Source: a plasmid
NCBI RefSeq assembly: GCF_054482525.1
Contig: NZ_JBTHVG010000003.1
Length of the DNA: 64,000 bases
Strand: one strand, 5' to 3'
The notes below the pieces were generated by a model that searched no databases, had not been told where the DNA came from, and was given only the letters and a program-made list of their open reading frames with translations. A program made the position numbers and the translations under genes. Within the stretch, counting starts at the first letter, position 1, and every line of letters begins with the position of its first letter. Below are positions 20,571 to 43,990 of the stretch, in pieces.

Positions 20571-20608
20571 GGGGAGCCCGCAGAATTCGGAAAAAATCGT
20601 ACGCTAAG
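20571..20608. repeat. 38-bp terminal inverted repeat of a Tn1721/Tn21-subgroup transposon
   Basis: GGGGAGCCCGCAGAATTCGGAAAAAATCGTACGCTAAG, matching the Tn1721 IR as I recall it; the tnpA stop lies within it. Confidence 0.7.
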
Positions 20609-22120
20609 GTTTTCCGGGCATCCGTAAGGGCCGAAACTTCCCGTCTTCCAGTCTGCGGCTCTGCCGCCAGACGTAATCGCCGGTTAGGTTGATGTGCTCC
20701 CAGCCCAGCGGCGACAGGAATTGCAGCAGCTCGCCGTCCACCGGCTTGCCGGCCTCGACCAACCCCTGGGTGGCGCGTTCCAGGTACACCGTGTTCCACA
20801 GCACGATAGCCGCCGTCACCAGGTTGAGGCCGCTGGCCCGGTAGCGCTGCTGCTCGAAGCTCCGATCCCTGATTTCCCCAAGGCGGTTGAAGAACACCGC
20901 CCTGGCCAGCGAGTTGCGCGCCTCACCTTTGTTCAGGCCGGCATGCACGCGGCGGCGCAGTTCAACACTTTGCAGCCAGTCCAGGATGAACAGCGTGCGC
21001 TCGATCCGGCCCAGCTCGCGCAGGGCCACGGCCAGTCCGTTCTGGCGCGGGTAGCTGCCGAGCTTGCGCAGCATCAGCGAGGCGGTGACGGTGCCCTGCT
21101 TGATCGAGCTGGCCAGGCGCAGGATGTCGTCCCAGTGGGCACGCACGTGCTTGATGTTCAGGGTGCCGCCGATCAGCGGGCGCAACGTCGGGTAGGCTTG
21201 CACGCCCTGCGGCACGTACAGCTTGGTTTCGCCGAGGTCGCGGATGCGCGGCGCGAAGCGGAAGCCTAGCAGGTGCATCAGGGCAAAGACGTGATCGGTG
21301 AAGCCGGCCGTGTCGGTGTAGTGCTCCTCGATCCGCAGGTCGGACTCGTGGTACAGCAGGCCGTCGAGCACATAGGTGGAATCGCGGACGCCGACATTCA
21401 CCACGCGGGTGCTGAACGGCGCGTACTGGTCGGAGATATGGGTATAGAACAGCCGTCCCGGCTCGCTACCGTACTTCGGGTTGACGTGCCCGGTGCTCTC
21501 GCCCCGGCCACCCGCGCGGAAGCGCTGGCCATCGGAGGATGAGGTCGTGCCGTCGCCCCAGTGGGCGGCAAAGGCGTGGCGATACTGGTGGTTGACCAGC
21601 TCGGCCAAGGCCGCCGAATAGGTTTCGTCGCGGATGTGCCAGGCTTGCAGCCAGGACAGCTTGGCGTAGGTCAGGCCGGGGCTCGACTCGGCCATCTTGG
21701 TCAGCCCGAGGTTGATCGCATCACCGAGGATTGCGGACAGCAGCAACGTCCTGTCTTTGGCCTCGGCCCCGTCCTTCAAGTGGGTGAAGTGGCGGCTGAA
21801 GCCCGTCCAGTCGTCCACGTCCATCAGCAGTTCGGTGATCTTGATGCGCGGCAGTAACTGGCTGGTTTGGTCGATCAGCGCCTGCGCCCGATCCGGCACC
21901 GCCGCATCCAGCGGGGTGATTTTCAGCCCTGACTCGGTGAGGATGGCATCGGGCAGCTCGTTGTCCTTGGCCAGGCGGGTGACGGTGGCCAACTGCTCGT
22001 CCAGCAGCTGCAAACGCTCTTCCAGGTACTGGTCGCTGTTCGGGTTGATCGCCAGGGGCAGGGCCTGCTCGCGCTTGAGTGCGGCGAACTTCTCGGCCGG
22101 CAGCAGGTAGTCGTCGAAGT
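20604..22120 (-). pseudogene. tnpA: Tn1721/Tn21-family transposase, 3' fragment truncated by IS26
   Basis: High-GC ORF encoding the C-terminal ~505 aa of a Tn3-family TnpA; reading frame runs into IS26 at 22121. Confidence 0.85.
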
Positions 22121-22940
22121 GGCACTGTTGCAAATAGTCGGTGGTGATAAACTTATCATCCCCTTTTGCTGATGGAGCTGCACATGAACCCATTCAAAGG
22201 CCGGCATTTTCAGCGTGACATCATTCTGTGGGCCGTACGCTGGTACTGCAAATACGGCATCAGTTACCGTGAGCTGCAGGAGATGCTGGCTGAACGCGGA
22301 GTGAATGTCGATCACTCCACGATTTACCGCTGGGTTCAGCGTTATGCGCCTGAAATGGAAAAACGGCTGCGCTGGTACTGGCGTAACCCTTCCGATCTTT
22401 GCCCGTGGCACATGGATGAAACCTACGTGAAGGTCAATGGCCGCTGGGCGTATCTGTACCGGGCCGTCGACAGCCGGGGCCGCACTGTCGATTTTTATCT
22501 CTCCTCCCGTCGTAACAGCAAAGCTGCATACCGGTTTCTGGGTAAAATCCTCAACAACGTGAAGAAGTGGCAGATCCCGCGATTCATCAACACGGATAAA
22601 GCGCCCGCCTATGGTCGCGCGCTTGCTCTGCTCAAACGCGAAGGCCGGTGCCCGTCTGACGTTGAACACCGACAGATTAAGTACCGGAACAACGTGATTG
22701 AATGCGATCATGGCAAACTGAAACGGATAATCGGCGCCACGCTGGGATTTAAATCCATGAAGACGGCTTACGCCACCATCAAAGGTATTGAGGTGATGCG
22801 TGCACTACGCAAAGGCCAGGCCTCAGCATTTTATTATGGTGATCCCCTGGGCGAAATGCGCCTGGTAAGCAGAGTTTTTGAAATGTAAGGCCTTTGAATA
22901 AGACAAAAGGCTGCCTCATCGCTAACTTTGCAACAGTGCC
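22121..22940 (+). mobile_element. tnp26: IS26 copy 1 (canonical Tnp26)
   Basis: 820 bp bounded by GGCACTGTTGCAAA terminal repeats; Tnp26 coding 22184-22888; residue 184 is Gly. Confidence 0.95.
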
Positions 22941-23529
22941 CGCTGTACCAAATGCGGGACAACGTAAGCACTACATTTCGCTCATCGCCGGCCCAGTCGG
23001 GCTGCGAGTTCCATAGCTTCAAGGTTTCCCTCAGCGCCTCGAATAGATCCTGTTCAGGAACCGGGTCAAAGAATTCCTCCGCTGCCGGACCTACCAAGGC
23101 AACGCTATGTTCTCTTGCTTTTGTAAGCAGGATAGCTAGATCAATGTCGATCATGGCTGGCTCGAAGATACCCGCAAGAATGTCATTGCGCTGCCATTCT
23201 CCAAATTGCAGCTCGCGCTTAGCCGGATAACGCCACGGGATGATGTCGTCATGCACGACAAGGGTGACTTCTATAGCGCGGAGCGTCTCGCTCTCGCCAG
23301 GGAAAGCCGAAGCCTCCATAAGATCATTGAGCAATGCTCGCCGCGTCGTTTCATCAAGCTTTACGGCCACAGTAACCAACAAATCAATATCGCTGTATGG
23401 CTTCAGGCCGCCATCCACTGCGGAGCCGTACAAATGCACGGCCAGCAACGTTGATTCCAGATGGCGCTCAATGACGCTTAGCACCTCTGATAGTTGGTTC
23501 GAAATTTCGATGGTCACCGCTTCCCTCAT
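22941..23529 (-). pseudogene. aadA2: aadA2 aminoglycoside adenylyltransferase, 3'-truncated by IS26
   Basis: N-terminal ~196 aa match the AadA2 sequence as recalled (MREAVTIEISNQLSEVLSVIERHLEST...); sequence diverges after RIWYS at the IS26 junction. Confidence 0.85.
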
Positions 23530-23534
23530 GATGT

Positions 23535-23825
23535 CTAACGGGCGAGGTAAGCCGACCGCAGAATGCGGGTCGGCTTGACCGAAATGTTAGAACCAGAAGC
23601 CAAAACGGATAACTTGAATTTGGCGACGGGCGCTAACCGTGAAAAAACGCTGCGCCACCGAGGCGGCACAGCACTGCAAAAACGATAGCTGCTTGCGCTT
23701 GCTACGCAAGGGCTAGAGGCCAAAAAGACTGAAAACCTGCGCAGCCCATGCAGGCGAAGCCCGGAAAAAAGGCAAAACAGGCACTGAATAACGCCTGAAA
23801 AGCTAAATGCCGTTTGAATAAACAT
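23535..23825 (-). CDS. gcuF: gene cassette of unknown function (gcuF/orfF)
   Basis: 96-aa ORF lying between dfrA12 and aadA2 in the classic dfrA12-orfF-aadA2 array; assigned by position. Confidence 0.5.
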   Translation of the reverse strand: MFIQTAFSFSGVIQCLFCLFSGLRLHGLRRFSVFLASSPCVASASSYRFCSAVPPRWRSVFSRLAPVAKFKLSVLASGSNISVKPTRILRSAYLAR

Positions 23826-23936
23826 GAGCTAAATAAAGCTGGGTTTCAGTGGTGCTAACGTTGGACGTAACGAGAGCCGGAGCGCAGCGGAGGGAACCAA
23901 AATGCGCAGCATTTTGGCGTCCCGTTGACGGAATGG

Positions 23937-24434
23937 TTAGCCGTTTCGACGCGCATAAACGGAGTGGGTGTACGGAATTACAGCTTGAATGGTTTCGGTT
24001 GAGACAAGCTCGAATTCTGTTTCGTTGAGCATTGGGAAGAAGGCGTCACCCTCGAAGGTTTGATGTACCTCAGATAGAAACACGCCGTGGGCGTGAGGTA
24101 GTGCCAGAGTGTATATCTCAGCTCCGCCCGCGACGTAGAGTTCATTGCCGAGTTCGGATGCCAAAGCGATAGCGTGCGACAGCGTTGAAACAACTACGCA
24201 GCCAGTGGCGCGGTAGTTAGCTTGGCGTGAGATTACCAATGTGTGACGGTTCGGTAGAGGCTTGCCGATAGACTCAAAGGTCTTTCGCCCCATGACAACG
24301 ACTTTTCCCTCAGTGAGTCTGCGAAAAATCTTCTGCTCACCCGGAATTTTCCAGGGGATATTAGGACCATTGCCAATAACCCGATTGGCTCCCATCGCAG
24401 CAACGAGATAAATGCGTACTGATTCCGAGTTCAT
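23937..24434 (-). CDS. dfrA12: trimethoprim-resistant dihydrofolate reductase DfrA12
   Basis: 165-aa ORF matching the DfrA12 sequence as recalled; first cassette next to attI1. Confidence 0.9.
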   Translation of the reverse strand: MNSESVRIYLVAAMGANRVIGNGPNIPWKIPGEQKIFRRLTEGKVVVMGRKTFESIGKPLPNRHTLVISRQANYRATGCVVVSTLSHAIALASELGNELYVAGGAEIYTLALPHAHGVFLSEVHQTFEGDAFFPMLNETEFELVSTETIQAVIPYTHSVYARRNG

Positions 24435-24578
24435 ATGGCTAACTTTGTTTTAGGGCGACTGCCCTGCTGCGTAACATCGTTGCTGCTCCATAACATCAAA
24501 CATCGACCCACGGCGTAACGCGCTTGCTGCTTGGATGCCCGAGGCATAGACTGTACAAAAAAACAGTCATAACAAGCC
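24435..24578. promoter_or_regulatory. attI1 and cassette promoter region of a class 1 integron
   Basis: Position between the intI1 start and the first cassette; inferred, not motif-checked. Confidence 0.45.
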
Positions 24579-24775
24579 ATGAAAACCGCCACTGCGCCGT
24601 TACCACCGCTGCGTTCGGTCAAGGTTCTGGACCAGTTGCGTGAGCGCATACGCTACTTGCATTACAGTTTACGAACCGAACAGGCTTATGTCAACTGGGT
24701 TCGTGCCTTCATCCGTTTCCACGGTGTGCGTCACCCGGCAACCTTGGGCAGCAGCGAAGTCGAGGCATTTCTGTC
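24579..24775 (+). pseudogene. intI1: class 1 integrase IntI1, N-terminal ~65 codons, truncated by IS26
   Basis: [66 protein letters not shown] then IS26 at 24776. Confidence 0.85.
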
Positions 24776-25595
24776 GGCACTGTTGCAAATAGTCGGTGGT
24801 GATAAACTTATCATCCCCTTTTGCTGATGGAGCTGCACATGAACCCATTCAAAGGCCGGCATTTTCAGCGTGACATCATTCTGTGGGCCGTACGCTGGTA
24901 CTGCAAATACGGCATCAGTTACCGTGAGCTGCAGGAGATGCTGGCTGAACGCGGAGTGAATGTCGATCACTCCACGATTTACCGCTGGGTTCAGCGTTAT
25001 GCGCCTGAAATGGAAAAACGGCTGCGCTGGTACTGGCGTAACCCTTCCGATCTTTGCCCGTGGCACATGGATGAAACCTACGTGAAGGTCAATGGCCGCT
25101 GGGCGTATCTGTACCGGGCCGTCGACAGCCGGGGCCGCACTGTCGATTTTTATCTCTCCTCCCGTCGTAACAGCAAAGCTGCATACCGGTTTCTGGGTAA
25201 AATCCTCAACAACGTGAAGAAGTGGCAGATCCCGCGATTCATCAACACGGATAAAGCGCCCGCCTATGGTCGCGCGCTTGCTCTGCTCAAACGCGAAGGC
25301 CGGTGCCCGTCTGACGTTGAACACCGACAGATTAAGTACCGGAACAACGTGATTGAATGCGATCATGGCAAACTGAAACGGATAATCGGCGCCACGCTGG
25401 GATTTAAATCCATGAAGACGGCTTACGCCACCATCAAAGGTATTGAGGTGATGCGTGCACTACGCAAAGGCCAGGCCTCAGCATTTTATTATGGTGATCC
25501 CCTGGGCGAAATGCGCCTGGTAAGCAGAGTTTTTGAAATGTAAGGCCTTTGAATAAGACAAAAGGCTGCCTCATCGCTAACTTTGCAACAGTGCC
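24776..25595 (+). mobile_element. tnp26: IS26 copy 2 (canonical), left arm of a Tn4352-like unit
   Basis: 820 bp with 14-bp terminal repeats; Tnp26 coding 24839-25543; Gly184. Confidence 0.95.
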
Positions 25596-25732
25596 AATTT
25601 ATGAGTAAAGGATTATGTCCACGATAAGCACCTGGGTCGATTCCTGGGAGGCGGCCATGAGGGTAGGGAAGCGCCGTCCCGTCAAGTCAGCGTAATGCTC
25701 TGCCAGTGTTACAACCAATTAACCAATTCTGA

Positions 25733-26548
25733 TTAGAAAAACTCATCGAGCATCAAATGAAACTGCAATTTATTCATATCAGGATTATCAATACCATATT
25801 TTTGAAAAAGCCGTTTCTGTAATGAAGGAGAAAACTCACCGAGGCAGTTCCATAGGATGGCAAGATCCTGGTATCGGTCTGCGATTCCGACTCGTCCAAC
25901 ATCAATACAACCTATTAATTTCCCCTCGTCAAAAATAAGGTTATCAAGTGAGAAATCACCATGAGTGACGACTGAATCCGGTGAGAATGGCAAAAGCTTA
26001 TGCATTTCTTTCCAGACTTGTTCAACAGGCCAGCCATTACGCTCGTCATCAAAATCACTCGCATCAACCAAACCGTTATTCATTCGTGATTGCGCCTGAG
26101 CGAGACGAAATACGCGATCGCTGTTAAAAGGACAATTACAAACAGGAATCGAATGCAACCGGCGCAGGAACACTGCCAGCGCATCAACAATATTTTCACC
26201 TGAATCAGGATATTCTTCTAATACCTGGAATGCTGTTTTCCCGGGGATCGCAGTGGTGAGTAACCATGCATCATCAGGAGTACGGATAAAATGCTTGATG
26301 GTCGGAAGAGGCATAAATTCCGTCAGCCAGTTTAGTCTGACCATCTCATCTGTAACATCATTGGCAACGCTACCTTTGCCATGTTTCAGAAACAACTCTG
26401 GCGCATCGGGCTTCCCATACAATCGATAGATTGTCGCACCTGATTGCCCGACATTATCGCGAGCCCATTTATACCCATATAAATCAGCATCCATGTTGGA
26501 ATTTAATCGCGGCCTCGAGCAAGACGTTTCCCGTTGAATATGGCTCAT
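25733..26548 (-). CDS. aph(3')-Ia: aminoglycoside 3'-phosphotransferase APH(3')-Ia
   Basis: 271-aa ORF matching the Tn903 kanamycin phosphotransferase sequence as recalled. Confidence 0.95.
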   Translation of the reverse strand: MSHIQRETSCSRPRLNSNMDADLYGYKWARDNVGQSGATIYRLYGKPDAPELFLKHGKGSVANDVTDEMVRLNWLTEFMPLPTIKHFIRTPDDAWLLTTAIPGKTAFQVLEEYPDSGENIVDALAVFLRRLHSIPVCNCPFNSDRVFRLAQAQSRMNNGLVDASDFDDERNGWPVEQVWKEMHKLLPFSPDSVVTHGDFSLDNLIFDEGKLIGCIDVGRVGIADRYQDLAILWNCLGEFSPSLQKRLFQKYGIDNPDMNKLQFHLMLDEFF

Positions 26549-26635
26549 AACACCCCTTGTATTACTGTTTATGTAAGCAGACAGTTTTATTGTTCATGAT
26601 GATATATTTTTATCTTGTGCAATGTAACATCAGAG

Positions 26636-27455
26636 GGCACTGTTGCAAATAGTCGGTGGTGATAAACTTATCATCCCCTTTTGCTGATGGAGCTGCACAT
26701 GAACCCATTCAAAGGCCGGCATTTTCAGCGTGACATCATTCTGTGGGCCGTACGCTGGTACTGCAAATACGGCATCAGTTACCGTGAGCTGCAGGAGATG
26801 CTGGCTGAACGCGGAGTGAATGTCGATCACTCCACGATTTACCGCTGGGTTCAGCGTTATGCGCCTGAAATGGAAAAACGGCTGCGCTGGTACTGGCGTA
26901 ACCCTTCCGATCTTTGCCCGTGGCACATGGATGAAACCTACGTGAAGGTCAATGGCCGCTGGGCGTATCTGTACCGGGCCGTCGACAGCCGGGGCCGCAC
27001 TGTCGATTTTTATCTCTCCTCCCGTCGTAACAGCAAAGCTGCATACCGGTTTCTGGGTAAAATCCTCAACAACGTGAAGAAGTGGCAGATCCCGCGATTC
27101 ATCAACACGGATAAAGCGCCCGCCTATGGTCGCGCGCTTGCTCTGCTCAAACGCGAAGGCCGGTGCCCGTCTGACGTTGAACACCGACAGATTAAGTACC
27201 GGAACAACGTGATTGAATGCGATCATGGCAAACTGAAACGGATAATCGGCGCCACGCTGGGATTTAAATCCATGAAGACGGCTTACGCCACCATCAAAGG
27301 TATTGAGGTGATGCGTGCACTACGCAAAGGCCAGGCCTCAGCATTTTATTATGGTGATCCCCTGGGCGAAATGCGCCTGGTAAGCAGAGTTTTTGAAATG
27401 TAAGGCCTTTGAATAAGACAAAAGGCTGCCTCATCGCTAACTTTGCAACAGTGCC
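26636..27455 (+). mobile_element. tnp26: IS26 copy 3 (canonical), right arm of a Tn4352-like unit
   Basis: 820 bp; Tnp26 coding 26699-27403; Gly184; direct orientation with copy 2, total span 2680 bp. Confidence 0.95.
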
Positions 27456-27664
27456 ATAAGAATATCATCAATAAAATTGAGTGTTGCTCTGTGGATAACT
27501 TGCAGAGTTTATTAAGTATCATTGCAGCAAAGATGAAATCAATGATTTATCAAAAATGATTGAAAGGTGGTTGTAAATAATGTTACAATGTGTGAGAAGC
27601 AGTCTAAATTCTTCGTGAAATAGTGATTTTTGAAGCTAATAAAAAACACACGTGGAATTTAGGG
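27456..27664 (+). mobile_element. ISEcp1 3'-end remnant with right IR, truncated by IS26
   Basis: Ends in ACGTGGAATTTAGGG followed by a ~41-bp spacer before blaCTX-M, the usual ISEcp1 promoter-providing arrangement. Confidence 0.8.
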
Positions 27665-27687
27665 AATACTGATGTAACACGGATTGA

Positions 27688-28581
<894 letters not shown>

Positions 28582-28583
28582 CT

Positions 28584-28932
28584 GGTTTTGTTGAATAAAT
28601 CGAACTTTTGCTGAGTTGAAGGATCAGATCACGTATCTTCCCGACAACGCAGACCGTTCCGTGGCAAAGCAAAAGTTCAAAATCACCAACTGGCCCACCT
28701 ACAATAAAGCCCTCATCAACCGTGGCTCCATAACTTTCTGGCTGGATGATGAAGCTATTCAGGCCTGGTATGAGTCAGCAACACCTTCTTCACGAGGCAG
28801 ACCTCAGCGCTATTCTGACCTTGCCATCACGACTGTGCTGGTCATTAAACGCGTATTCAGGCTGACCCTGCGCGCTGCGCAGGGCTTTATTGATTCCATT
28901 TTTTCTCTGATGAACGTTCCGCTACGCTGCCC
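28584..28932 (+). mobile_element. IS903-like fragment (left IR plus transposase N-terminus)
   Basis: Begins GGTTTTGTTGAATAAATCG; encodes MKDQITYLPDNADRSVAKQKF..., the IS903 transposase N-terminus; breaks off near 28932. Confidence 0.8.
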
Positions 28933-29192
28933 GGTGTAATGTCGGTGCTGATTTGGTCTTCAATAAGGCGATTTTTAGCCCGCTTTTTCCGGGGGGATGA
29001 AATGTTATTGGATTGCTAAATGATTTCAAAAAAGGGGTAACATAGAGCGGGGATTAGTGTGGCGAGGCGCAGGTTTCCGATGGCAGGCTAAACGCAAAAA
29101 ATGCGCTTTTTAGCCGGTGATGAGGTGAGGCCGGGAGGGGATGCGTCGCCGATCACAGTTTACAACAGGGTTTGATAACGGGAGGAAAAGTC

Positions 29193-29609
29193 ATGCTGCA
29201 GGGATTGAATCATCTGACGCTGGCGGTCAGCGATCTGGCGTCAAGCCTGGCATTTTATCAGCAGTTACCTGGAATGCGCCTGCACGCCAGCTGGGATAGC
29301 GGAGCCTATCTCTCCTGTGGGGCGCTGTGGCTGTGCTTGTCGCTGGATGAGCAGCGGCGTAAAACGCCCCCTCAGGAAAGCGACTATACCCACTACGCCT
29401 TCAGCGTGGCGGAAGAAGAGTTTGCCGGGGTGGTGGCTCTGCTGGCGCAGGCGGGGGCTGAGGTATGGAAAGATAACCACAGTGAAGGGGCGTCTTACTA
29501 TTTTCTCGACCCTGACGGCCATAAGCTGGAGCTGCATGTGGGGAATCTGGCGCAGCGGCTGGCCGCCTGTCGCGAACGCCCCTACAAGGGGATGGTCTTT
29601 TTTGATTGA
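29193..29609 (+). CDS. fosA3: fosfomycin-resistance glutathione transferase FosA3
   Basis: Start at internal Met ([15 protein letters not shown]...); 138-aa product matching FosA3 as recalled. Confidence 0.85.
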
Positions 29610-29613
29610 CGGG

Positions 29614-30132
29614 TTAGTTCAGCTTACTGCCGGATTTCAACGTGCAGATCCACAGCGGTGAATTGATAGAGCTGAGCAAGATAGCCTTTTCGTTGAGCTT
29701 CTGAGCGTTGAGAAACAGCCCGTCGTGGCTGTCGGACATCTCGCGCATAAAGTAGTCGAAAATCACGTTCGGCGATTCATCAATCGAGGAGGCGCTCGAT
29801 TCCCACTGATTGATGCGGTAATGACGCTCGGTGGCCGAGATGCGTTTGCTGCTGTAGGTAAACTTCACGTAGCGTTGCAGGTAGAGCCAGCCGGCGGCGG
29901 AGTCGGTGTAACCTTCGACCACCATCGAGCCTTTACCCTGCGCGCCAAAATTGAAGTGAATATTGCCGTTAACGTTCTCTTTGTCCATGTTCTCAAAGCG
30001 CATGATGCCCTTAGTGGAACAGCTCATGACACCCGCGTTGTCGGCAGGCAGCAGCCGCCAGGCGCTAAACGCGGCGGCGGCAATAAATACCAGAACGCAG
30101 AGGGCAAAGAACGGACGCGGCGCGAGTCTCAT
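29614..30132 (-). CDS. hypothetical exported protein linked to fosA3
   Basis: 172-aa ORF with N-terminal signal/TM segment, in the position of orf1 of the fosA3 module. Confidence 0.5.
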   Translation of the reverse strand: MRLAPRPFFALCVLVFIAAAAFSAWRLLPADNAGVMSCSTKGIMRFENMDKENVNGNIHFNFGAQGKGSMVVEGYTDSAAGWLYLQRYVKFTYSSKRISATERHYRINQWESSASSIDESPNVIFDYFMREMSDSHDGLFLNAQKLNEKAILLSSINSPLWICTLKSGSKLN

Positions 30133-31651: not shown

Positions 31652-31801
31652 CGTCATACTTTCGCCTTCATGATCTGCAACGAGTTGATCAATAATAAGC
31701 GAAATTCGATAACGAAATTCGATATAAATCTAGAAAAAAATACCTCTATGTGTACTACGCAGTTTTAGCTGTGGCTTTCACAGGAGCACGCTTACTTACG
31801 G

Positions 31802-33185: not shown

Positions 33186-33189
33186 ATGT

Positions 33190-33327: not shown

Positions 33328-33357
33328 ACGCTCAGTGGAACGAAAACTCACGTTAAG
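33320..33357. repeat. Tn2/Tn3 38-bp terminal inverted repeat
   Basis: GGGGTCTGACGCTCAGTGGAACGAAAACTCACGTTAAG. Confidence 0.85.
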
Positions 33358-34655: not shown

Positions 34656-35475
34656 GGCACTGTTGCAAATAGTCGGTGGTGATAAACTTATCATCCCCTT
34701 TTGCTGATGGAGCTGCACATGAACCCATTCAAAGGCCGGCATTTTCAGCGTGACATCATTCTGTGGGCCGTACGCTGGTACTGCAAATACGGCATCAGTT
34801 ACCGTGAGCTGCAGGAGATGCTGGCTGAACGCGGAGTGAATGTCGATCACTCCACGATTTACCGCTGGGTTCAGCGTTATGCGCCTGAAATGGAAAAACG
34901 GCTGCGCTGGTACTGGCGTAACCCTTCCGATCTTTGCCCGTGGCACATGGATGAAACCTACGTGAAGGTCAATGGCCGCTGGGCGTATCTGTACCGGGCC
35001 GTCGACAGCCGGGGCCGCACTGTCGATTTTTATCTCTCCTCCCGTCGTAACAGCAAAGCTGCATACCGGTTTCTGGGTAAAATCCTCAACAACGTGAAGA
35101 AGTGGCAGATCCCACGATTCATCAACACGGATAAAGCGCCCGCCTATGGTCGCGCGCTTGCTCTGCTCAAACGCGAAGGCCGGTGCCCGTCTGACGTTGA
35201 ACACCGACAGATTAAGTACCGGAACAACGTGATTGAATGCGATCATGGCAAACTGAAACGGATAATCAACGCCACGCTGGGATTTAAATCCATGAAGACG
35301 GCTTACGCCACCATCAAAGGTATTGAGGTGATGCGTGCACTACGCAAAGGCCAGGCCTCAGCATTTTATTATGGTGATCCCCTGGGCGAAATGCGCCTGG
35401 TAAGCAGAGTTTTTGAAATGTAAGGCCTTTGAATAAGACAAAAGGCTGCCTCATCGCTAACTTTGCAACAGTGCC
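34656..35475 (+). mobile_element. tnp26: IS26 copy 5 (Tnp26 G184N variant)
   Basis: 820 bp; Tnp26 coding 34719-35423; RIINATLGF instead of RIIGATLGF, plus one silent change. Confidence 0.95.
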
Positions 35476-35625
35476 GCCCCAGCAGCATCTCCAGCTGTGA
35501 ACGCTGTTCGGCTGACGGTATCAGTGCCAGTTTGTTCCACAGGCGCAACGTCGCCTTTTCCCTTACCTCTGAAATCAACCGGGTCAGCGTAGTGGCTCCG
35601 GGGAGAATAATAGTCTATCCCGGCA

Positions 35626-36003
35626 TTGCCAGTCGGGGATATTAAAAAGAGTATAGGTTTTTATTGCGATAAACTAGGTTTCACTTTGGTTCACCATGAA
35701 GATGGATTCGCAGTTCTAATGTGTAATGAGGTTCGGATTCATCTATGGGAGGCAAGTGATGAAGGCTGGCGCTCTCGTAGTAATGATTCACCGGTTTGTA
35801 CAGGTGCGGAGTCGTTTATTGCTGGTACTGCTAGTTGCCGCATTGAAGTAGAGGGAATTGATGAATTATATCAACATATTAAGCCTTTGGGCATTTTGCA
35901 CCCCAATACATCATTAAAAGATCAGTGGTGGGATGAACGAGACTTTGCAGTAATTGATCCCGACAACAATTTGATTAGCTTTTTTCAACAAATAAAAAGC
36001 TAA
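35626..36003 (+). CDS. bleO: bleomycin-binding protein, BleO-like
   Basis: Low-GC ORF matching the pUB110-type BleO sequence as recalled (PVGDIKKSIGFYCDKLGFTLVHHEDGFAVLMCNEVRIHLWEA...); the track starts it at a TTG, so the true N-terminus is uncertain. Confidence 0.75.
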   Translation: MPVGDIKKSIGFYCDKLGFTLVHHEDGFAVLMCNEVRIHLWEASDEGWRSRSNDSPVCTGAESFIAGTASCRIEVEGIDELYQHIKPLGILHPNTSLKDQWWDERDFAVIDPDNNLISFFQQIKS

Positions 36004-36020
36004 AATCTATTATTAATCTG

Positions 36021-36085
36021 TTCAGCAATCGGGCGCGATTGCTGAATAAAAGATACGAGAGACCTCTCTTGTATCTTTTTTATTT
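36021..36085 (+). terminator. tandem hairpins with T-run downstream of bleO
   Basis: TTCAGCAATC-GGGCGC-GATTGCTGAA then AGATACGAGAGA-CC-TCTCTTGTATCT followed by TTTTTTATTTT. Confidence 0.55.
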
Positions 36086-36090
36086 TGAGT

Positions 36091-36185
36091 GGTTTTGTCC
36101 GTTACACTAGAAAACCGAAAGACAATAAAAATTTTATTCTTGCTGAGTCTGGCTTTCGGTAAGCTAGACAAAACGGACAAAATAA
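36091..36185. repeat. long imperfect palindrome in the bleO module
   Basis: TTTTGTCCGTT...CCGAAAGAC...GTCTGGCTTTCGG...AACGGACAAAA, nested inverted repeats over ~95 bp. Confidence 0.4.
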
Positions 36186-36322
36186 AAATCTAAATATGCT
36201 TGAACAACTTGTAACTTAAATTCATAACTGTATTTTGCCATAAAAAATGACCTCCCATAAGTTAGATTTTTGGTCTAACTTATGGGGGTCAGTTCATTCT
36301 ACACTTGGGCTGCATGTTTTGA

Positions 36323-36715
36323 TTAATTATCTAATATCTCCGGATCTCCTGTAAAGGAATATAAAACTGCCTGCATGTTTTTCAAATAAAATACGGTGAA
36401 TTTCCCATCATCAGCGCTATACCAATCTCTCAAAAACGGATTTGCTTCAAGCATTGCTTCCCTTGCTTCCACGGTATCATCAATTACGGCTTCGCCGGTG
36501 AGCCGAATCCATTTTCCTTTTGCCATACCTGAGACTTCCACCTTTGAATTTGCCAATAACTGCTGATAAACTTTTTTCTGATTGGTTGTACCAAGATAGA
36601 CCTTGCCATTCCTCTCCATGGCTGCATTAAACGGTCTGACCCTTGGCTGGTCTCCTTCAACGGTTGCAAAATAAAAAGTTTTTGCTTCATTTAAAAAATC
36701 AACAACTTGACTCAT
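36323..36715 (-). CDS. pyridoxamine 5'-phosphate oxidase-like (split-barrel flavin-binding) protein
   Basis: 130-aa low-GC ORF; family assignment from general resemblance, unverified. Confidence 0.5.
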   Translation of the reverse strand: MSQVVDFLNEAKTFYFATVEGDQPRVRPFNAAMERNGKVYLGTTNQKKVYQQLLANSKVEVSGMAKGKWIRLTGEAVIDDTVEAREAMLEANPFLRDWYSADDGKFTVFYLKNMQAVLYSFTGDPEILDN

Positions 36716-36759
36716 CCTTTTTTACCTCCATAAATAAATTTTTCTTTACTTTTCTTTGA

Positions 36760-36997
36760 CCTAAATTCCACGTGCATTTTTTATTAGCTTAAAAGAACAC
36801 TATTTCACGAAGAATTTAAACTGATACTCCCACATTGTAACATTATTTACCACCACCTTTCAATCTTTTTCAATAAATTATTGATTGCAACTTTTGAGTA
36901 AAGATACTTATTAAACCCTGCAAGTTATCCACAGAGCAACACTCGATTTTCAAGATGATATCTTTATTATACCAGACATTTTTCATACACTTCCTTG
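36760..36997 (-). mobile_element. divergent ISEcp1-like (IS1380 family) 3'-end remnant, truncated by IS26
   Basis: Reverse complement aligns at roughly 85% identity with the ISEcp1 remnant at 27456-27664 and ends in ACGTGGAATTTAGG about 45 bp upstream of the 36715 start codon. Confidence 0.6.
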
Positions 36998-37817
36998 GGC
37001 ACTGTTGCAAAGTTAGCGATGAGGCAGCCTTTTGTCTTATTCAAAGGCCTTACATTTCAAAAACTCTGCTTACCAGGCGCATTTCGCCCAGGGGATCACC
37101 ATAATAAAATGCTGAGGCCTGGCCTTTGCGTAGTGCACGCATCACCTCAATACCTTTGATGGTGGCGTAAGCCGTCTTCATGGATTTAAATCCCAGCGTG
37201 GCGTTGATTATCCGTTTCAGTTTGCCATGATCGCATTCAATCACGTTGTTCCGGTACTTAATCTGTCGGTGTTCAACGTCAGACGGGCACCGGCCTTCGC
37301 GTTTGAGCAGAGCAAGCGCGCGACCATAGGCGGGCGCTTTATCCGTGTTGATGAATCGTGGGATCTGCCACTTCTTCACGTTGTTGAGGATTTTACCCAG
37401 AAACCGGTATGCAGCTTTGCTGTTACGACGGGAGGAGAGATAAAAATCGACAGTGCGGCCCCGGCTGTCGACGGCCCGGTACAGATACGCCCAGCGGCCA
37501 TTGACCTTCACGTAGGTTTCATCCATGTGCCACGGGCAAAGATCGGAAGGGTTACGCCAGTACCAGCGCAGCCGTTTTTCCATTTCAGGCGCATAACGCT
37601 GAACCCAGCGGTAAATCGTGGAGTGATCGACATTCACTCCGCGTTCAGCCAGCATCTCCTGCAGCTCACGGTAACTGATGCCGTATTTGCAGTACCAGCG
37701 TACGGCCCACAGAATGATGTCACGCTGAAAATGCCGGCCTTTGAATGGGTTCATGTGCAGCTCCATCAGCAAAAGGGGATGATAAGTTTATCACCACCGA
37801 CTATTTGCAACAGTGCC
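36998..37817 (-). mobile_element. tnp26: IS26 copy 6 (Tnp26 G184N variant)
   Basis: 820 bp; Tnp26 coding 37050-37754 on minus strand; Asn184. Confidence 0.95.
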
Positions 37818-38073
37818 AGTTTTATTGTTACATTTAAATCCACGCCGGGATCGCGGTTTTTTATCCCCCCCCTGGACCGCACATAAAGTGCAACAATTAT
37901 TCTTGCACTTAGTTAAGCGCCTTCCTACAATCGCCGCGATAGTGTATTCGAAATTGTTACAGTTTTGTGGCGATGATCGACACAAATGGCCTTAAGCCAG
38001 CCCGGACAAAGGAAGTGGCGCGGCTTCTCACGCTGCGTCTTGCCCGGCGGCTACATTTACCGGAATAAAAATA

Positions 38074-39249
38074 ATGAGCCTGCAAAAAACCTGGGGAAAC
38101 ATTCACCTGACCGCGCTCGGCGCGATGATGCTCTCCTTTCTGCTCGTCGGCTGCGACGACAGCGTCGCACAGAATGCTGCGCCTCCCGCCCCGACGGTCA
38201 GCGCCGCTAAGGTGCTGGTGAAGTCGATCAGTCAGTGGGATAGTTTTAACGGTCGCATTGAAGCGGTGGAGAGCGTTCAGCTTCGCCCTCGCGTCTCGGG
38301 ATACATTGATAAAGTGAATTACACTGACGGCCAGGAGGTGAAAAAGGGCCAGGTGCTGTTCACGATAGATGACAGAACCTATCGCGCCGCGCTGGAGCAG
38401 GCGCAGGCGGCGTTGGCAAGAGCCAAAACGCAGGCCAGCCTCGCGCAAAGCGAGGCGAACCGCACCGATAAATTAGTCCATACCAACCTCGTCTCCCGTG
38501 AAGAGTGGGAGCAGCGCCGGTCAGCCGCGGTTCAGGCGCAGGCCGACGTTCGCGCCGCGCAGGCGGCGGTGGATGCCGCGCAGCTTAACCTCGACTTCAC
38601 CAAAGTGACCGCCCCTATTGACGGCCGCGCCAGCCGGGCGCTGATCACCAGCGGTAACCTGGTCACCGCGGGCGACACCGCCAGCGTGCTCACCACCCTG
38701 GTCTCGCAAAAGACGGTGTACGTCTACTTTGACGTCGACGAGTCAACCTACCTCCACTATCAAAACCTCGCCCGCCGCGGGCAAGGCGCGTCCAGCGATA
38801 ATCAGGCGCTCCCGGTGGAGATTGGCCTGGTGGGCGAGGAGGGTTACCCCCACCAGGGCAAAGTGGATTTTCTCGATAATCAGTTAACGCCGAGTACCGG
38901 CACCATCCGCATGCGTGCGCTGCTGGATAACTCGCAGCGTCTGTTCACGCCGGGGCTGTTTGCCCGCGTGCGTCTGCCGGGCAGCGCAGAGTTCAAAGCC
39001 ACGCTGATCGACGACAAAGCGGTACTGACCGATCAGGATCGTAAATACGTCTATATCGTTGATAAAGATGGTAAAGCACAGCGCCGCGACATTACCCCAG
39101 GGCGGCTGGCAGACGGTTTACGCATCGTTCAGAAGGGGTTGAATCCTGGGGATAGCGTCATCGTCGACGGCTTACAAAAAGTGTTTATGCCGGGTATGCC
39201 GGTTAACGCCAAAACCGTTGCCATGACCTCCAGCGCCACCCTTAACTGA
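38074..39249 (+). CDS. oqxA: RND efflux periplasmic adaptor OqxA
   Basis: 391-aa ORF with lipoprotein signal (LLVGC) and membrane-fusion-protein sequence matching OqxA as recalled. Confidence 0.95.
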   Translation: MSLQKTWGNIHLTALGAMMLSFLLVGCDDSVAQNAAPPAPTVSAAKVLVKSISQWDSFNGRIEAVESVQLRPRVSGYIDKVNYTDGQEVKKGQVLFTIDDRTYRAALEQAQAALARAKTQASLAQSEANRTDKLVHTNLVSREEWEQRRSAAVQAQADVRAAQAAVDAAQLNLDFTKVTAPIDGRASRALITSGNLVTAGDTASVLTTLVSQKTVYVYFDVDESTYLHYQNLARRGQGASSDNQALPVEIGLVGEEGYPHQGKVDFLDNQLTPSTGTIRMRALLDNSQRLFTPGLFARVRLPGSAEFKATLIDDKAVLTDQDRKYVYIVDKDGKAQRRDITPGRLADGLRIVQKGLNPGDSVIVDGLQKVFMPGMPVNAKTVAMTSSATLN

Positions 39250-39272
39250 TCCCTAATCAGAGAATCCAAGAC

Positions 39273-42200
39273 ATGGACTTTTCCCGCTTTTTTATCGACA
39301 GGCCGATTTTCGCCGCGGTGCTGTCGATTTTAATTTTTATCACCGGGTTAATCGCTATCCCACTGCTGCCGGTGAGCGAATATCCGGATGTCGTCCCGCC
39401 GAGCGTCCAGGTGCGCGCGGAGTATCCCGGCGCCAACCCGAAAGTGATTGCCGAGACCGTGGCGACGCCGCTGGAGGAAGCGATCAACGGCGTTGAAAAC
39501 ATGATGTACATGAAATCGGTCGCCGGCTCCGACGGCGTGCTGGTCACCACCGTCACCTTCCGCCCGGGTACCGACCCGGATCAGGCGCAGGTTCAGGTGC
39601 AGAACCGCGTCGCGCAGGCCGAAGCGCGTCTGCCGGAGGATGTACGCCGTCTGGGGATCACCACCCAGAAGCAGTCTCCGACGCTGACCCTGGTGGTGCA
39701 TCTGTTCTCCCCCGGCGGGAAGTACGACTCGCTGTATATGCGCAACTACGCCACGCTGAAAGTGAAGGATGAGCTGGCGCGCCTGCCCGGCGTCGGCCAG
39801 ATCCAGATTTTTGGCTCCGGTGAATATGCGATGCGCGTCTGGCTGGATCCCAATAAGGTCGCTGCCCGCGGTCTGACGGCCTCGGATGTGGTGACGGCGA
39901 TGCAGGAGCAAAACGTCCAGGTGTCTGCCGGACAGCTTGGCGCCGAGCCGCTGCCGCAGGAGAGCGATTTCCTGATCTCCATTAACGCCCAGGGCCGTCT
40001 GCATACCGAAGAAGAGTTTGGCAATATCATTCTGAAAACGGCGCAGGATGGCTCGCTGGTCCGCCTGCGCGACGTGGCGCGCATCGAGATGGGTTCCGGT
40101 AGCTATGCGCTGCGCTCCCAGCTCAACAATAAGGATGCGGTCGGGATCGGTATCTTCCAGTCACCCGGCGCTAACGCCATCGATCTGTCGAACGCGGTAC
40201 GCGCCAAAATGGCCGAGCTGGCCACCCGCTTCCCGGAAGATATGCAATGGGCGGCGCCGTACGACCCGACGGTTTTCGTCCGCGACTCCATCCGCGCGGT
40301 GGTGCAGACGCTGCTGGAGGCGGTAGTGCTGGTGGTGCTGGTAGTGATCCTGTTCCTGCAGACCTGGCGCGCGTCGATTATCCCGTTGATCGCTGTGCCG
40401 GTATCGGTGGTGGGTACCTTCAGCATTCTCTATCTGCTGGGCTTCTCGCTGAATACCCTGAGCCTGTTCGGGCTGGTACTGGCTATCGGTATCGTGGTGG
40501 ACGACGCCATCGTGGTGGTGGAGAACGTCGAGCGTAATATCGAAGAGGGGCTTGCGCCGCTTGCCGCGGCGTATCAGGCGATGCGTGAGGTCTCCGGGCC
40601 GATTATCGCCATTGCGCTGGTGCTGTGTGCGGTGTTCGTGCCGATGGCGTTTCTCTCCGGGGTCACCGGCCAGTTCTACAAACAGTTCGCGGTGACCATC
40701 GCCATCTCGACGGTGATCTCGGCCATCAACTCGCTGACGCTCTCCCCGGCGCTGGCGGCCCTGCTGTTAAAGCCGCACGGCGCGAAGAAAGACCTCCCTA
40801 CCCGGCTGATCGATCGCCTGTTTGGCTGGATTTTCCGTCCGTTTAACCGCTTTTTCCTGCGCAGCTCGAACGGCTATCAGGGACTGGTAGGCAAAACGCT
40901 TGGACGCCGTGGCGCAGTGTTTGCGGTGTACCTGCTGCTGCTCTGCGCCGCTGGGGTGATGTTTAAAGTCGTCCCCGGCGGGTTTATTCCCACCCAGGAT
41001 AAGCTGTATCTCATTGGCGGCGTGAAGATGCCGGAAGGGTCGTCGCTGGCGCGCACCGACGCGGTGATCCGCAAAATGAGCGAGATCGGGATGAATACCG
41101 AAGGGGTCGACTATGCGGTCGCTTTCCCGGGGCTTAACGCGCTGCAGTTCACCAACACGCCGAATACCGGGACGATCTTTTTTGGCCTGAAACCGTTCGA
41201 CCAGCGCAAACACACGGCGGCGGAAATTAACGCGGAGATCAACGCCAAAATCGCGCAAATCCAGCAGGGCTTTGGCTTTTCCATCCTGCCGCCGCCGATT
41301 TTAGGTCTGGGTCAGGGTTCCGGCTACTCCCTGTACATCCAGGATCGCGGAGGGCTGGGCTATGGCGCGCTGCAAAGCGCGGTGAATGCGATGTCCGGGG
41401 CGATTATGCAGACGCCGGGGATGCACTTCCCGATCTCGACTTACCAGGCTAACGTGCCGCAGCTGGACGTGCAGGTCGATCGCGATAAGGCGAAAGCGCA
41501 GGGGGTATCGCTAACCGATCTGTTCGGTACGCTGCAGACCTATCTCGGCTCGTCTTATGTCAATGACTTTAACCAGTTCGGGCGTACCTGGCGCGTGATG
41601 GCCCAGGCTGACGGACCATACCGCGAGAGCGTGGAAGATATCGCCAATCTGCGCACCCGCAATAATCAGGGCGAAATGGTACCGATCGGCAGTATGGTGA
41701 ATATCAGTACCACCTACGGGCCGGATCCGGTGATCCGCTACAACGGTTATCCGGCGGCGGACCTGATTGGCGATGCCGATCCGCGGGTCCTCTCTTCTTC
41801 GCAGGCGATGACGCATCTGGAAGAGCTGTCGAAGCAGATCCTGCCGAATGGGATGAATATTGAGTGGACGGATCTCAGCTTCCAGCAGGCCACCCAGGGC
41901 AACACGGCGCTGATCGTCTTCCCGGTGGCGGTGCTGCTGGCATTCCTCGTACTGGCCGCGCTGTATGAAAGCTGGACCCTGCCGCTGGCGGTGATCCTTA
42001 TCGTACCGATGACGATGCTCTCCGCGCTGTTTGGCGTCTGGCTGACCGGGGGCGATAACAACGTCTTCGTGCAGGTGGGTCTGGTGGTCCTGATGGGCCT
42101 GGCCTGTAAAAACGCCATTCTGATCGTCGAGTTTGCCCGCGAGCTGGAGATCCAGGGGAAAGGCATCATGGAAGCGGCGCTGGAGGCATGCCGCCTGCGT

Positions 42201-42425
42201 CTGCGCCCGATCGTGATGACCTCCATCGCCTTTATCGCCGGGACCATTCCGCTGATCCTCGGCCACGGCGCGGGGGCGGAAGTCCGCGGCGTCACCGGGA
42301 TCACGGTGTTCTCCGGGATGCTGGGCGTGACGCTCTTCGGTCTGTTCCTGACGCCGGTGTTTTACGTGACGCTACGGAAACTGGTGACCCGCAGGAAGCC
42401 GGTCCAGGAGGATCTGCCCGCCTAG
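39273..42425 (+). CDS. oqxB: RND efflux transporter OqxB
   Basis: 1050-aa ORF, 12-TM RND permease, 23 bp downstream of oqxA. Confidence 0.95.
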   Translation: MDFSRFFIDRPIFAAVLSILIFITGLIAIPLLPVSEYPDVVPPSVQVRAEYPGANPKVIAETVATPLEEAINGVENMMYMKSVAGSDGVLVTTVTFRPGTDPDQAQVQVQNRVAQAEARLPEDVRRLGITTQKQSPTLTLVVHLFSPGGKYDSLYMRNYATLKVKDELARLPGVGQIQIFGSGEYAMRVWLDPNKVAARGLTASDVVTAMQEQNVQVSAGQLGAEPLPQESDFLISINAQGRLHTEEEFGNIILKTAQDGSLVRLRDVARIEMGSGSYALRSQLNNKDAVGIGIFQSPGANAIDLSNAVRAKMAELATRFPEDMQWAAPYDPTVFVRDSIRAVVQTLLEAVVLVVLVVILFLQTWRASIIPLIAVPVSVVGTFSILYLLGFSLNTLSLFGLVLAIGIVVDDAIVVVENVERNIEEGLAPLAAAYQAMREVSGPIIAIALVLCAVFVPMAFLSGVTGQFYKQFAVTIAISTVISAINSLTLSPALAALLLKPHGAKKDLPTRLIDRLFGWIFRPFNRFFLRSSNGYQGLVGKTLGRRGAVFAVYLLLLCAAGVMFKVVPGGFIPTQDKLYLIGGVKMPEGSSLARTDAVIRKMSEIGMNTEGVDYAVAFPGLNALQFTNTPNTGTIFFGLKPFDQRKHTAAEINAEINAKIAQIQQGFGFSILPPPILGLGQGSGYSLYIQDRGGLGYGALQSAVNAMSGAIMQTPGMHFPISTYQANVPQLDVQVDRDKAKAQGVSLTDLFGTLQTYLGSSYVNDFNQFGRTWRVMAQADGPYRESVEDIANLRTRNNQGEMVPIGSMVNISTTYGPDPVIRYNGYPAADLIGDADPRVLSSSQAMTHLEELSKQILPNGMNIEWTDLSFQQATQGNTALIVFPVAVLLAFLVLAALYESWTLPLAVILIVPMTMLSALFGVWLTGGDNNVFVQVGLVVLMGLACKNAILIVEFARELEIQGKGIMEAALEACRLRLRPIVMTSIAFIAGTIPLILGHGAGAEVRGVTGITVFSGMLGVTLFGLFLTPVFYVTLRKLVTRRKPVQEDLPA

Positions 42426-42440
42426 CCTGCAGCAGATAAC

Positions 42441-42478
42441 AAAAAAACCGCCTTCACAATTTGAAGGCGGTTTTTTTT
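42441..42478. terminator. bidirectional rho-independent terminator
   Basis: A-run, AACCGCCTTCA-CAATT-TGAAGGCGGTT hairpin, T-run; lies between convergent oqxB and oqxR. Confidence 0.7.
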
Positions 42479-42494
42479 CGTCACCAGAAAATGA

Positions 42495-43023
42495 TTAATG
42501 CGCTTTTTTAAAGCGGGCGATCATTTCCGGCACCGGGTCGCAGCCGCTGGTATCGGCGTTTTTGACCGCCTCCAGCGCGCTGGCCACGGTATGGCGAGCG
42601 AGGACGTTTAACGAAGCCTGCTCTGCTTCATCGGCAACCGATTTGAAGTACCAGCAGGCGTTGGCGCTGACCACGCAGCGGGCCGGGACGTCAGGACGCG
42701 ACGCCCACAGTTTTTTATCTTCGATAACCGAAAGATAGATATCACGCAGGGTGATCTTGTCCGCCGGACGGCCAAGATGAATTGAGCCGTTGCGACCAAG
42801 CGTGGAGACGATAATGCCGTCACGAGTTAGCGGAACCATTAGTTTACGGATAAAGCTCGGGTTCGCTTCCAGGCCGTAGGCCAGAATCGCACTCGTCGAA
42901 CGTTCACCCATCTGCTCCGCCATTGCTACGCTGAGAACCATCTGCAAAGCTGTCGGGAAGCGGTAATCTAACATGGCAGTGTCCTGGGTTGCGGTGAATC
43001 TTGTTCTTTTTAGCACCGCAGAG
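42495..43023 (-). CDS. oqxR: Rrf2-family repressor OqxR, N-terminus replaced at the IS26 junction
   Basis: Rrf2-like sequence from LDYRFPTALQMVLSVA onward; the in-frame N-terminus MNKTKGCLIANFATVP is encoded inside IS26 copy 7. Confidence 0.65.
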
Positions 43024-43843
43024 GGCACTGTTGCAAAGTTAGCGATGAGGCAGCCTTTTGTCTTATTCAAAGGCCTTACATTTCAAAAACTCTGCTTACC
43101 AGGCGCATTTCGCCCAGGGGATCACCATAATAAAATGCTGAGGCCTGGCCTTTGCGTAGTGCACGCATCACCTCAATACCTTTGATGGTGGCGTAAGCCG
43201 TCTTCATGGATTTAAATCCCAGCGTGGCGTTGATTATCCGTTTCAGTTTGCCATGATCGCATTCAATCACGTTGTTCCGGTACTTAATCTGTCGGTGTTC
43301 AACGTCAGACGGGCACCGGCCTTCGCGTTTGAGCAGAGCAAGCGCGCGACCATAGGCGGGCGCTTTATCCGTGTTGATGAATCGTGGGATCTGCCACTTC
43401 TTCACGTTGTTGAGGATTTTACCCAGAAACCGGTATGCAGCTTTGCTGTTACGACGGGAGGAGAGATAAAAATCGACAGTGCGGCCCCGGCTGTCGACGG
43501 CCCGGTACAGATACGCCCAGCGGCCATTGACCTTCACGTAGGTTTCATCCATGTGCCACGGGCAAAGATCGGAAGGGTTACGCCAGTACCAGCGCAGCCG
43601 TTTTTCCATTTCAGGCGCATAACGCTGAACCCAGCGGTAAATCGTGGAGTGATCGACATTCACTCCGCGTTCAGCCAGCATCTCCTGCAGCTCACGGTAA
43701 CTGATGCCGTATTTGCAGTACCAGCGTACGGCCCACAGAATGATGTCACGCTGAAAATGCCGGCCTTTGAATGGGTTCATGTGCAGCTCCATCAGCAAAA
43801 GGGGATGATAAGTTTATCACCACCGACTATTTGCAACAGTGCC
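43024..43843 (-). mobile_element. tnp26: IS26 copy 7 (Tnp26 G184N variant)
   Basis: 820 bp; Tnp26 coding 43076-43780 on minus strand; Asn184; direct orientation with copy 6 around oqxAB. Confidence 0.95.
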
Positions 43844-43990
43844 ACGCAAAGACGTAATGAGCAGTGTATCCCCTGCCACAATACCCTCTTCAGGGATGCT
43901 GTCAGTGGACGTCCAGTACTGACCCGCCAGCAAAGAATGAAATCGCTCTAAACGGTCAATGCTATTTTTGCTGACCAGGTCACCCATATA
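43844..43990 (-). pseudogene. backbone gene 5' fragment truncated by IS26
   Basis: Hand translation from ATG near 43990: MGDLVSKNSIDRLERFHSLLAGQYWTSTDSIPEEGIVAGDTLLITSLR, running into IS26 copy 7. Confidence 0.3.

Follow-up and report, generated by a model that had tools for sequence, protein, structure and literature searches.

The unequal ends of the resistance island in this plasmid are most likely (probability about 0.85) the outcome of three events, namely a deletion in the backbone, the insertion of a Tn1721-type transposon, and a later erosion of one side by IS26. The window, a stretch of 64,000 nucleotides, contains an island of 23,273 bp whose flanks are collinear with plasmids typed as IncHI2A (99.7-100% identity); on the basis of this flank identity the plasmid is assigned to IncHI2. 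Comparative sequence analysis shows all three steps and their order, and the whole island derives from a single Tn1721-type insertion; the chemistry of the third step is what we infer. The literature contains general descriptions of the boundaries of IncHI2 resistance regions, among which no explicit account of this three-step history was found.

At its left boundary the island begins with an intact, complete 38-bp Tn1721-type terminal inverted repeat (GGGGAGCCCGCAGAATTCGGAAAAAATCGTACGCTAAG, positions 20571-20608), as the initial annotation had stated. This is the repeat at the tnpA end (IRR), and it differs at 3 of 38 positions from the opposite repeat (IRL) of pSA26-MCR-1. Next to it is a tnpA remnant of about 505 codons (20604-22120, minus strand) that is cut by IS26 copy 1; of the Tn3-family transposase only the C-terminal half is encoded (NF033527, profile positions 466-954 of 954, E = 2.4e-223). 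Only IRR and this remnant were found in the window when it was compared with a complete Tn1721 carrying mcp/orfI, res, tnpR, and tetA(A), and the mcp gene was seen only in the ancestor-like pSA26-MCR-1. On the minus strand IRR is followed by TTTAAGATTTTGG; the adjoining TTAAA (20566-20570; TTTAA on the other strand) is the kept copy of the 5-bp target-site duplication, with TTTAA located beside IRL in pSA26-MCR-1, beside IRR in the window, and in a single copy in the empty site. The left neighbour of the repeat had been regarded as an undisrupted backbone gene, but it is part of an ORF that was split by Tn1721. The ORF listed here (20144-20530, 128 aa) starts at an internal Met, which is an Ile in NC_021845, and its 5' end is absent. 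It belongs to a 3' remnant (20144-20570, minus strand) of a backbone ORF that measures 163 aa when intact and 388 aa when fused as in pSH111_227. For the 163-aa ORF, the start codon is predicted from an AGAGG Shine-Dalgarno-like motif, from the annotation in two records, and from the Ile that NC_021845 has in place of the internal Met. A 128-aa gene of the IncHI1 plasmid pEQ1 was considered as a counterpart of the left ORF and rejected; the two proteins are unrelated, and their equal length is coincidental.

The right boundary is formed by IS26 copy 7 (43024-43843, minus strand, G184N variant), whose complete right end (...TTTGCAACAGTGCC) meets the backbone directly at position 43844. There it adjoins codon 48 of a backbone gene, of which only the first 48 codons remain (43844-43987, minus strand). 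Copy 7 does cut off the 5' part of a backbone ORF, as initially noted, but this ORF starts at 43987 rather than at 43990. Its frame runs 8 codons into IS26 and stops at 43817, so that a chimera of 56 aa results. In OW849189, NC_021845, and pEQ1 a 3336-bp gene (1111 aa) begins at this start, and the stub is a real but incomplete ORF, neither spurious nor complete. The 1111-aa gene is conserved in IncHI2 and IncHI1 plasmids and has recognisable relatives in plasmids of Citrobacter, Providencia, and Delftia.

The amount of backbone that seems to be missing differs between references. In comparison with R478-like plasmids the window lacks the segment L002 8145-12565, a flank-to-flank gap of 4,421 bp, and no part of this DNA is present elsewhere in the 64-kb window. 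On pSH111_227, which represents the empty site, the window flanks are collinear and 99.7-99.8% identical (L006 5082-10146 and 1-4485), and the island replaces exactly the 596 bp between them. An older deletion accounts for 3,825 bp (L002 8720-12544). It shows a 3-bp AAG microhomology but no IS at its junction, and places nt 719 of the 1111-aa gene in frame with nt 45 of the downstream 163-aa ORF, a fusion retained in pSH111_227 as an annotated 388-aa ORF. The deletion is present in 17 plasmids without Tn1721 or IS26 at the site, and the 3,825 bp are also gone in 52 plasmids that still bear the Tn1721 IRL. The gap against the distant reference (4.4 kb) thus overstates what IS26 removed (0.6 kb). 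The left-edge ORF and the right-edge stub are the 3' and 5' ends of the same fusion ORF. The suggestion that the matching 3' part of the stub is absent from the left edge is consequently half true: both pieces are the two ends of the 388-aa ORF in the immediate ancestor, whereas most of the 3' part of the 1111-aa gene is indeed absent but was lost earlier, with the IS-free 3,825 bp. The proposed loss of backbone at the IS26 edge is borne out by the 596-bp gap between collinear flanks, by the absence of the missing DNA from the window, and by an intact IS26 end at a junction for which the window holds no matching 8-bp duplication. Its attribution to IS26 stands for about 600 bp only, the other 3,825 bp belonging to the older deletion, and copy 7 is perhaps not the responsible copy.

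Counts of the individual junctions across 72,556 plasmids agree with stepwise formation. The backbone/IRR junction occurs in 618 records, the IS26/codon-48 junction, base for base, in 318 plasmids, the IRL junction in 52 records, and the deleted backbone without a transposon in 17 records; a Tn1721 IRL in undeleted backbone was found in none of the 72,556 plasmids. Both Tn1721 junctions can be found at 100% identity within one plasmid (e.g., CP022165 and CP020493), and some 50 plasmids, pSA26-MCR-1 among them, have kept the two together. The right flank of pSA26-MCR-1 is identical to that of the window over 5 kb (100%), and the plasmid shows, in this order, gene nt 1-719, 26 bp (GTTTAAGTCCATCGGAAGGTATTTAA), Tn1721 IRL, and the mcp gene. 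Only 375 records contain any DNA from the missing 4.4 kb, 269 of them nearly the whole segment, and the majority of the 318 complete plasmids that carry the IS26 junction must therefore lack it entirely. Other plasmids carry further partial truncations of the same backbone locus. The exact IRR, IS26/codon-48, and IRL junctions are useful as lineage markers for IncHI2 resistance plasmids; beyond such bookkeeping their importance is small.

In the proposed history, an IS-independent 3,825-bp deletion first fused the 1111-aa gene to the 163-aa ORF, and a Tn1721-family transposon then entered the fusion ORF and duplicated TTTAA. Later, codon 48 of the gene became the new outer junction of an IS26 within the growing island, and the Tn1721 IRL end was lost together with 601 bp of backbone, which comprise 575 bp of the gene, a further 21 bp, and the other copy of TTTAA (596 bp when measured against the empty site). 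In this step IS26 most likely acted by intramolecular replicative transposition, with a nearby target and in the orientation that produces deletions; this mechanism excises the intervening DNA and leaves the IS end in precise contact with the target, without an 8-bp duplication. The junction was subsequently inherited while the DNA on its inner side was repeatedly exchanged through IS26-mediated events and recombination, so that the edge IS26 is now a G184N variant and part of an oqxAB (Tn6010-like) unit. Plasmids sharing the IS26/codon-48 junction contain either IS26 variant and have different inner neighbours. With the same outer junction, pSTM6-275 carries a canonical IS26 that has sul1 on its inner side, whereas the window has the G184N variant with an oqxR-side flank. 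Because the edge variants of the two plasmids differ, the deletion may have been made by an IS26 other than copy 7. The junction itself is an inherited, ordinary scar common to hundreds of sequenced plasmids.

The window contains seven complete 820-bp IS26 copies (14 matches to the 14-bp terminal repeat versus 0 expected), each with GGCACTGTTGCAAA and its complement at the two ends as perfect 14-bp terminal inverted repeats. Translation of copies 1 and 7 yielded a 234-aa Tnp26 with G184N as the sole difference, and the annotation of pSTM6-275 gives an IS26-family transposase for the corresponding copy. Copies 1 (Tnp26 G184; 22121-22940), 2 (24776-25595), and 3 (26636-27455) are canonical and lie on the plus strand, copy 4 (30832-31651) is canonical and oriented oppositely on the minus strand, and copies 5 (34656-35475, plus) and 6 (36998-37817, minus) are G184N variants. 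Between them are located, from left to right, an integron cassette fragment with truncated aadA and dfrA12 (22941-24775, minus), an aph(3')-Ia module (25596-26635, minus), a blaCTX-M and fosA3 module (27456-30831, plus), sul1 with a second Tn3-family tnpA remnant (31652-34655, minus), a bleO module (35476-36997, plus), and oqxA, oqxB, and an Rrf2-family regulator (37818-43023, plus). Together with copies 6 and 7, the last group makes up a Tn6010-like IS26 composite. As in Tn6010 (IS26-oqxAB-oqxR-IS26), two directly oriented copies bracket the three genes. However, the unit is flanked by CTTCCTTG on one side and ACGCAAAG on the other without an 8-bp duplication and thus is not a simple composite transposon insertion here. 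No matching 8-bp target-site duplication was found at any of the seven copies in the window, in either orientation, and neither ACGCAAAG nor CTTTGCGT was matched at any IS26 flank. The lack of duplications is to be expected where deletions and recombination have occurred and does not weaken the identification as IS26. The 23.4-kb island in its entirety has no one-piece match among the database plasmids.

The codon-48 junction might also have arisen in two steps, by insertion of IS26 with an 8-bp duplication (ACGCAAAG) followed by homologous recombination with a directly oriented IS26 of the island, which would delete IRL and the 601 bp of backbone. This route is possible, although we consider it unlikely. 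It would be in line with the abundance of IS26 copies in both orientations, and exchange at the edge IS26 is clear from the different variants and inner flanks of the plasmids sharing the junction. However, the inner junction predicted for such a simple insertion at codon 48 with its duplication was found in none of the 72,556 plasmids (coverage at least 80%), which is negative evidence only. Both routes give identical products, and the missing database intermediate favours one step only weakly.

Far less probable is a single event in which copy 7 deleted the whole 4.4 kb and left a clean left edge beside an intact gene. The flank gap against R478-like plasmids would fit such an event, but the 3,825 bp were already absent, across an IS-free junction, from the plasmids with an empty site and from those retaining IRL, and the left-edge ORF has no 5' end. 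An even more remote reading assumes no loss at all, with the right-edge ORF being spurious or complete or its missing part moved away by an IS26-mediated inversion. The stub is short, and the 64 kb open to inspection belong to a larger plasmid, elsewhere in which the 596 bp could lie. Nevertheless, the stub corresponds to the beginning of a gene that IncHI2 and IncHI1 plasmids conserve, the window contains neither the missing DNA nor an inverted 8-bp flank, and the segment is wholly absent from most plasmids with the IS26/codon-48 junction.

Loss of DNA next to IS26 is a known kind of event. Harmer and Hall, among others, reportedly described adjacent deletions on resistance plasmids that result from intramolecular replicative transposition or from IS26-IS26 recombination (work cited in PMC8920835 and PMC9019673). 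The present case resembles these in the complete IS26 end on a truncated target gene, the lack of an 8-bp duplication, the loss of the intervening DNA, and the assembly of the island from IS26-bounded modules. It does not differ in kind, but is ancestral, shared by 318 plasmids, and its junction IS26 has since been exchanged. Likewise, the left edge resembles Tn1721 (Tn3 family, Tn21/Tn501 subgroup) in its 38-bp repeats, Tn3-family TnpA, 5-bp target duplication, and, in the ancestor, an mcp gene next to IRL, whereas the window has kept no more than IRR and roughly half of tnpA and IS26 modules have replaced the rest.

The proteins lost (1111, 171, and 163 aa) received no function from sequence searches against NCBIfam, Pfam, and PDB, and a marginal PADLOC match to KwaB (E = 0.003, 14.9 bits) was taken as chance. 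It is conceivable, albeit improbable, that the stepwise erosion of this locus was non-neutral and its inactivation selected. The 1111-aa protein or the 388-aa fusion would then be costly or restrict incoming mobile elements, and inactivation would have helped the locus to become a landing pad for resistance genes in the ST3-type IncHI2 lineage.

The multiresistance regions of the IncHI2/ST3 plasmids pHNSHP45-2, pHN6DS2, and pSTM6-275 share the backbone and the two boundary types with the window but differ in the order and content of the internal IS26 modules, and pSTM6-275 contains both window junctions at 100% identity. Boundary-marker PCRs for such regions are termed 'HP1-IS26-aphA1' and 'Tn1721-HP2' (PMC6288184).

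Both flanks of the 23,273-bp resistance island are IncHI2 backbone and share 99-100% identity with hundreds of IncHI2A-typed plasmids; umuDC lies a short way to the right. The window flanks were mapped onto pSH111_227, a related plasmid without the resistance region, which is the kind of comparison suggested in the initial annotation. They are collinear there, with no change of strand (left flank on 5082-10146, 99.8% identity; right flank on 1-4485, 99.7% identity), and exactly 596 bp (4486-5081) are absent from the window. Thus, the island replaces 596 bp of backbone. On OW849189, an R478-like and distant reference whose right flank is 91-93% identical to the window, the gap between the flanks spans 8145-12565 (4,421 bp), and none of this segment is found elsewhere in the window. 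The right flank of pSA26-MCR-1 shows 100% identity to that of the window across 5 kb. Positions 13355-14550 of OW849189 (approximately 1.2 kb, including a 299-aa ORF) are also absent from the left flank, at approximately 19782-19785 of the window; this difference from the R478-like reference represents a further indel that separates the backbones of IncHI2 lineages.

On the right, IS26 copy 7 is complete up to its terminus (...TTTGCAACAGTGCC), which meets AT-rich backbone at 43844. As the initial annotation had proposed, this copy cuts into the 5' part of a backbone ORF, which starts on the minus strand at 43987 (3 nt from the 43990 given there) and comprises 48 backbone codons followed by 8 codons of IS26. 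The resulting 56-aa chimeric ORF (43817-43987, minus strand) is annotated in RefSeq as the hypothetical protein WP_152919720.1 of pSTM6-275, and in this way an artefact created by the junction has spread through the database annotations. The same start opens a 3336-bp ORF coding for 1111 aa in OW849189 (8001-11336), NC_021845, and the IncHI1 plasmid pEQ1. The stub therefore is the incomplete beginning of a real gene and no spurious ORF; the window retains only 43844-43987 of this gene. Conservation of the 1111-aa protein extends across IncHI2 and IncHI1 plasmids, and distant relatives exist on plasmids of Citrobacter, Providencia, and Delftia. No sequence match was found in Pfam, NCBIfam, or the PDB, and PADLOC yielded only a marginal match to KwaB (E = 0.003). 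The protein is evidently dispensable, given that most of it is missing from hundreds of conjugative plasmids.

The left edge is, as previously described, an intact Tn1721-like inverted repeat, complete over 38 bp (20571-20608, GGGGAGCCCGCAGAATTCGGAAAAAATCGTACGCTAAG) and followed on the minus strand by TTTAAGATTTTGG. The ORF next to the repeat on the island side is truncated by IS26 copy 1 and codes for a protein aligning to positions 466-954 of the Tn3-family transposase profile (954 positions; E = 2.4e-223). TTTAA adjoins both the IRR (the repeat at the tnpA end) and the opposite IRL but occurs only once in uninterrupted backbone, and therefore represents the 5-bp duplication expected for a Tn3-family insertion. 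The adjacent backbone gene had been considered undisrupted. In intact plasmids, however, this part lies within a 163-aa ORF whose predicted start codon (ATG) follows an AGAGG motif at a distance of 7 nt, and the internal Met that opens the 128-aa left ORF of the window is Ile in NC_021845. Judged from these sequence features, the label "undisrupted" is therefore probably wrong.

Plasmid pSA26-MCR-1 carries nt 1-719 of the 1111-aa gene, directly followed by 26 bp (GTTTAAGTCCATCGGAAGGTATTTAA), the IRL (GGGGGAACCGCAGAATTC...), and an mcp gene. The 26 bp correspond to OW849189 12545-12570, within the downstream 163-aa ORF. The junction (GGCAAG/GTTTAAG) contains no IS and only AAG microhomology, and 3,825 bp (OW849189 8720-12544) are deleted. 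In pSH111_227 this older deletion forms an in-frame fusion of the 1111-aa gene to the 163-aa ORF, annotated as a single 388-aa ORF (4342-5508). The left ORF of the window consists of its last 128 codons, with 13 further in-frame codons up to the repeat. Tn1721 entered this fusion ORF, and the stub at the right edge (codons 1-48) and the ORF at the left edge therefore are opposite ends of one ancestral ORF.

Among 72,556 plasmids, the backbone/IRR junction was found in 618 records, the IS26/codon-48 junction in 318, and the junction of gene nt 719, the 26 bp, and the IRL in 52. The IRL and IRR junctions occur together in several records (e.g., CP022165, CP020493, CP034390, and CP022735). The 3,825-bp-deleted backbone without transposon occurs in 17 records, all 100% identity matches and including pSH111_227, and the IRL in undeleted backbone in none. 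The 3,825-bp deletion therefore preceded Tn1721 insertion, and the IS26 event came last. Compared with the ancestor that carried the transposon, IS26 took away 601 bp of backbone and, with it, the IRL end of Tn1721. The proposed loss of backbone through IS26 thus holds for the gap relative to pSH111_227, whereas 3,825 bp of the 4,421-bp gap relative to OW849189 had already disappeared at an IS-free junction.

Not a single terminal base of IS26 is missing at the codon-48 junction, an indication of transposase chemistry and not of illegitimate recombination. Neither ACGCAAAG nor CTTTGCGT was found on another IS26 flank in the window, and no plasmid in the database carries a simple IS26 insertion at codon 48 with a duplication. 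Together, these features fit an adjacent deletion made in one step through intramolecular replicative transposition of IS26, to which we assign a probability of about 0.55. An IS26 insertion followed by IS26-IS26 recombination would yield an identical product, and we regard this two-stage route as less likely. The 4.4-kb segment appears to be truly lost, not relocated: only 375 records contain any part of it (269 of them nearly all), and it is therefore entirely missing from most of the 318 plasmids that carry the IS26 junction.

The IS26 copies of the window fall into two variants, which differ at 3 nt. Copies 1-4 (starting at 22121, 24776, 26636, and 30832) are canonical, and copies 5-7 (34656, 36998, and 43024) encode Tnp26 G184N (IS26-v1), which is reported to be more active. 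The outer junction of pSTM6-275 is identical to that of the window, but there it is formed by a canonical IS26 with a sul1 inner flank instead of a G184N copy with an oqxR-side inner flank. The IS26/codon-48 junction is inherited, and the edge IS26 is part of a Tn6010-like oqxAB unit that came in, or recombined, at a later stage. Copy 7 therefore did not necessarily make the deletion. The asymmetric edges observed initially are confirmed, and their interpretation is partly supported: it holds for the backbone loss at the IS26 edge but probably not for the undisrupted left gene.

Deletions adjacent to IS26 and islands assembled by it are textbook knowledge for resistance plasmids. The boundaries of the IncHI2/ST3 multiresistance region have already been marked by "HP1-IS26" and "Tn1721-HP2" (PMC6288184), and related papers describe rearrangements of these plasmids as driven by IS26 and truncated Tn1721 (PMC9019673, PMC8920835). 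An explicit statement of the three-step reconstruction was not found in the literature on these plasmids; this history is a refinement of a known phenomenon and not a new kind of event.

All seven IS26 copies are complete (820 bp), and the window contains 14 occurrences of their 14-bp terminal repeat (0 expected). Matching 8-bp flanks were found for none of the seven (22121-43843). The IS26-bounded modules inside the island carry truncated aadA with dfrA12; aph(3')-Ia; blaCTX-M with fosA3; sul1 with a second Tn3-family tnpA remnant; bleO; and oqxA, oqxB, and an Rrf2-family regulator. No database plasmid matched the whole 23.4-kb island as one piece (best match, 78% of the query in five pieces), and the module order appears to be a unique mosaic built from common parts. 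The transposase remnant beside sul1 (33353-34660; profile positions 546-954) is cut by IS26 copy 5; it is not the same as the left-edge remnant of Tn1721.
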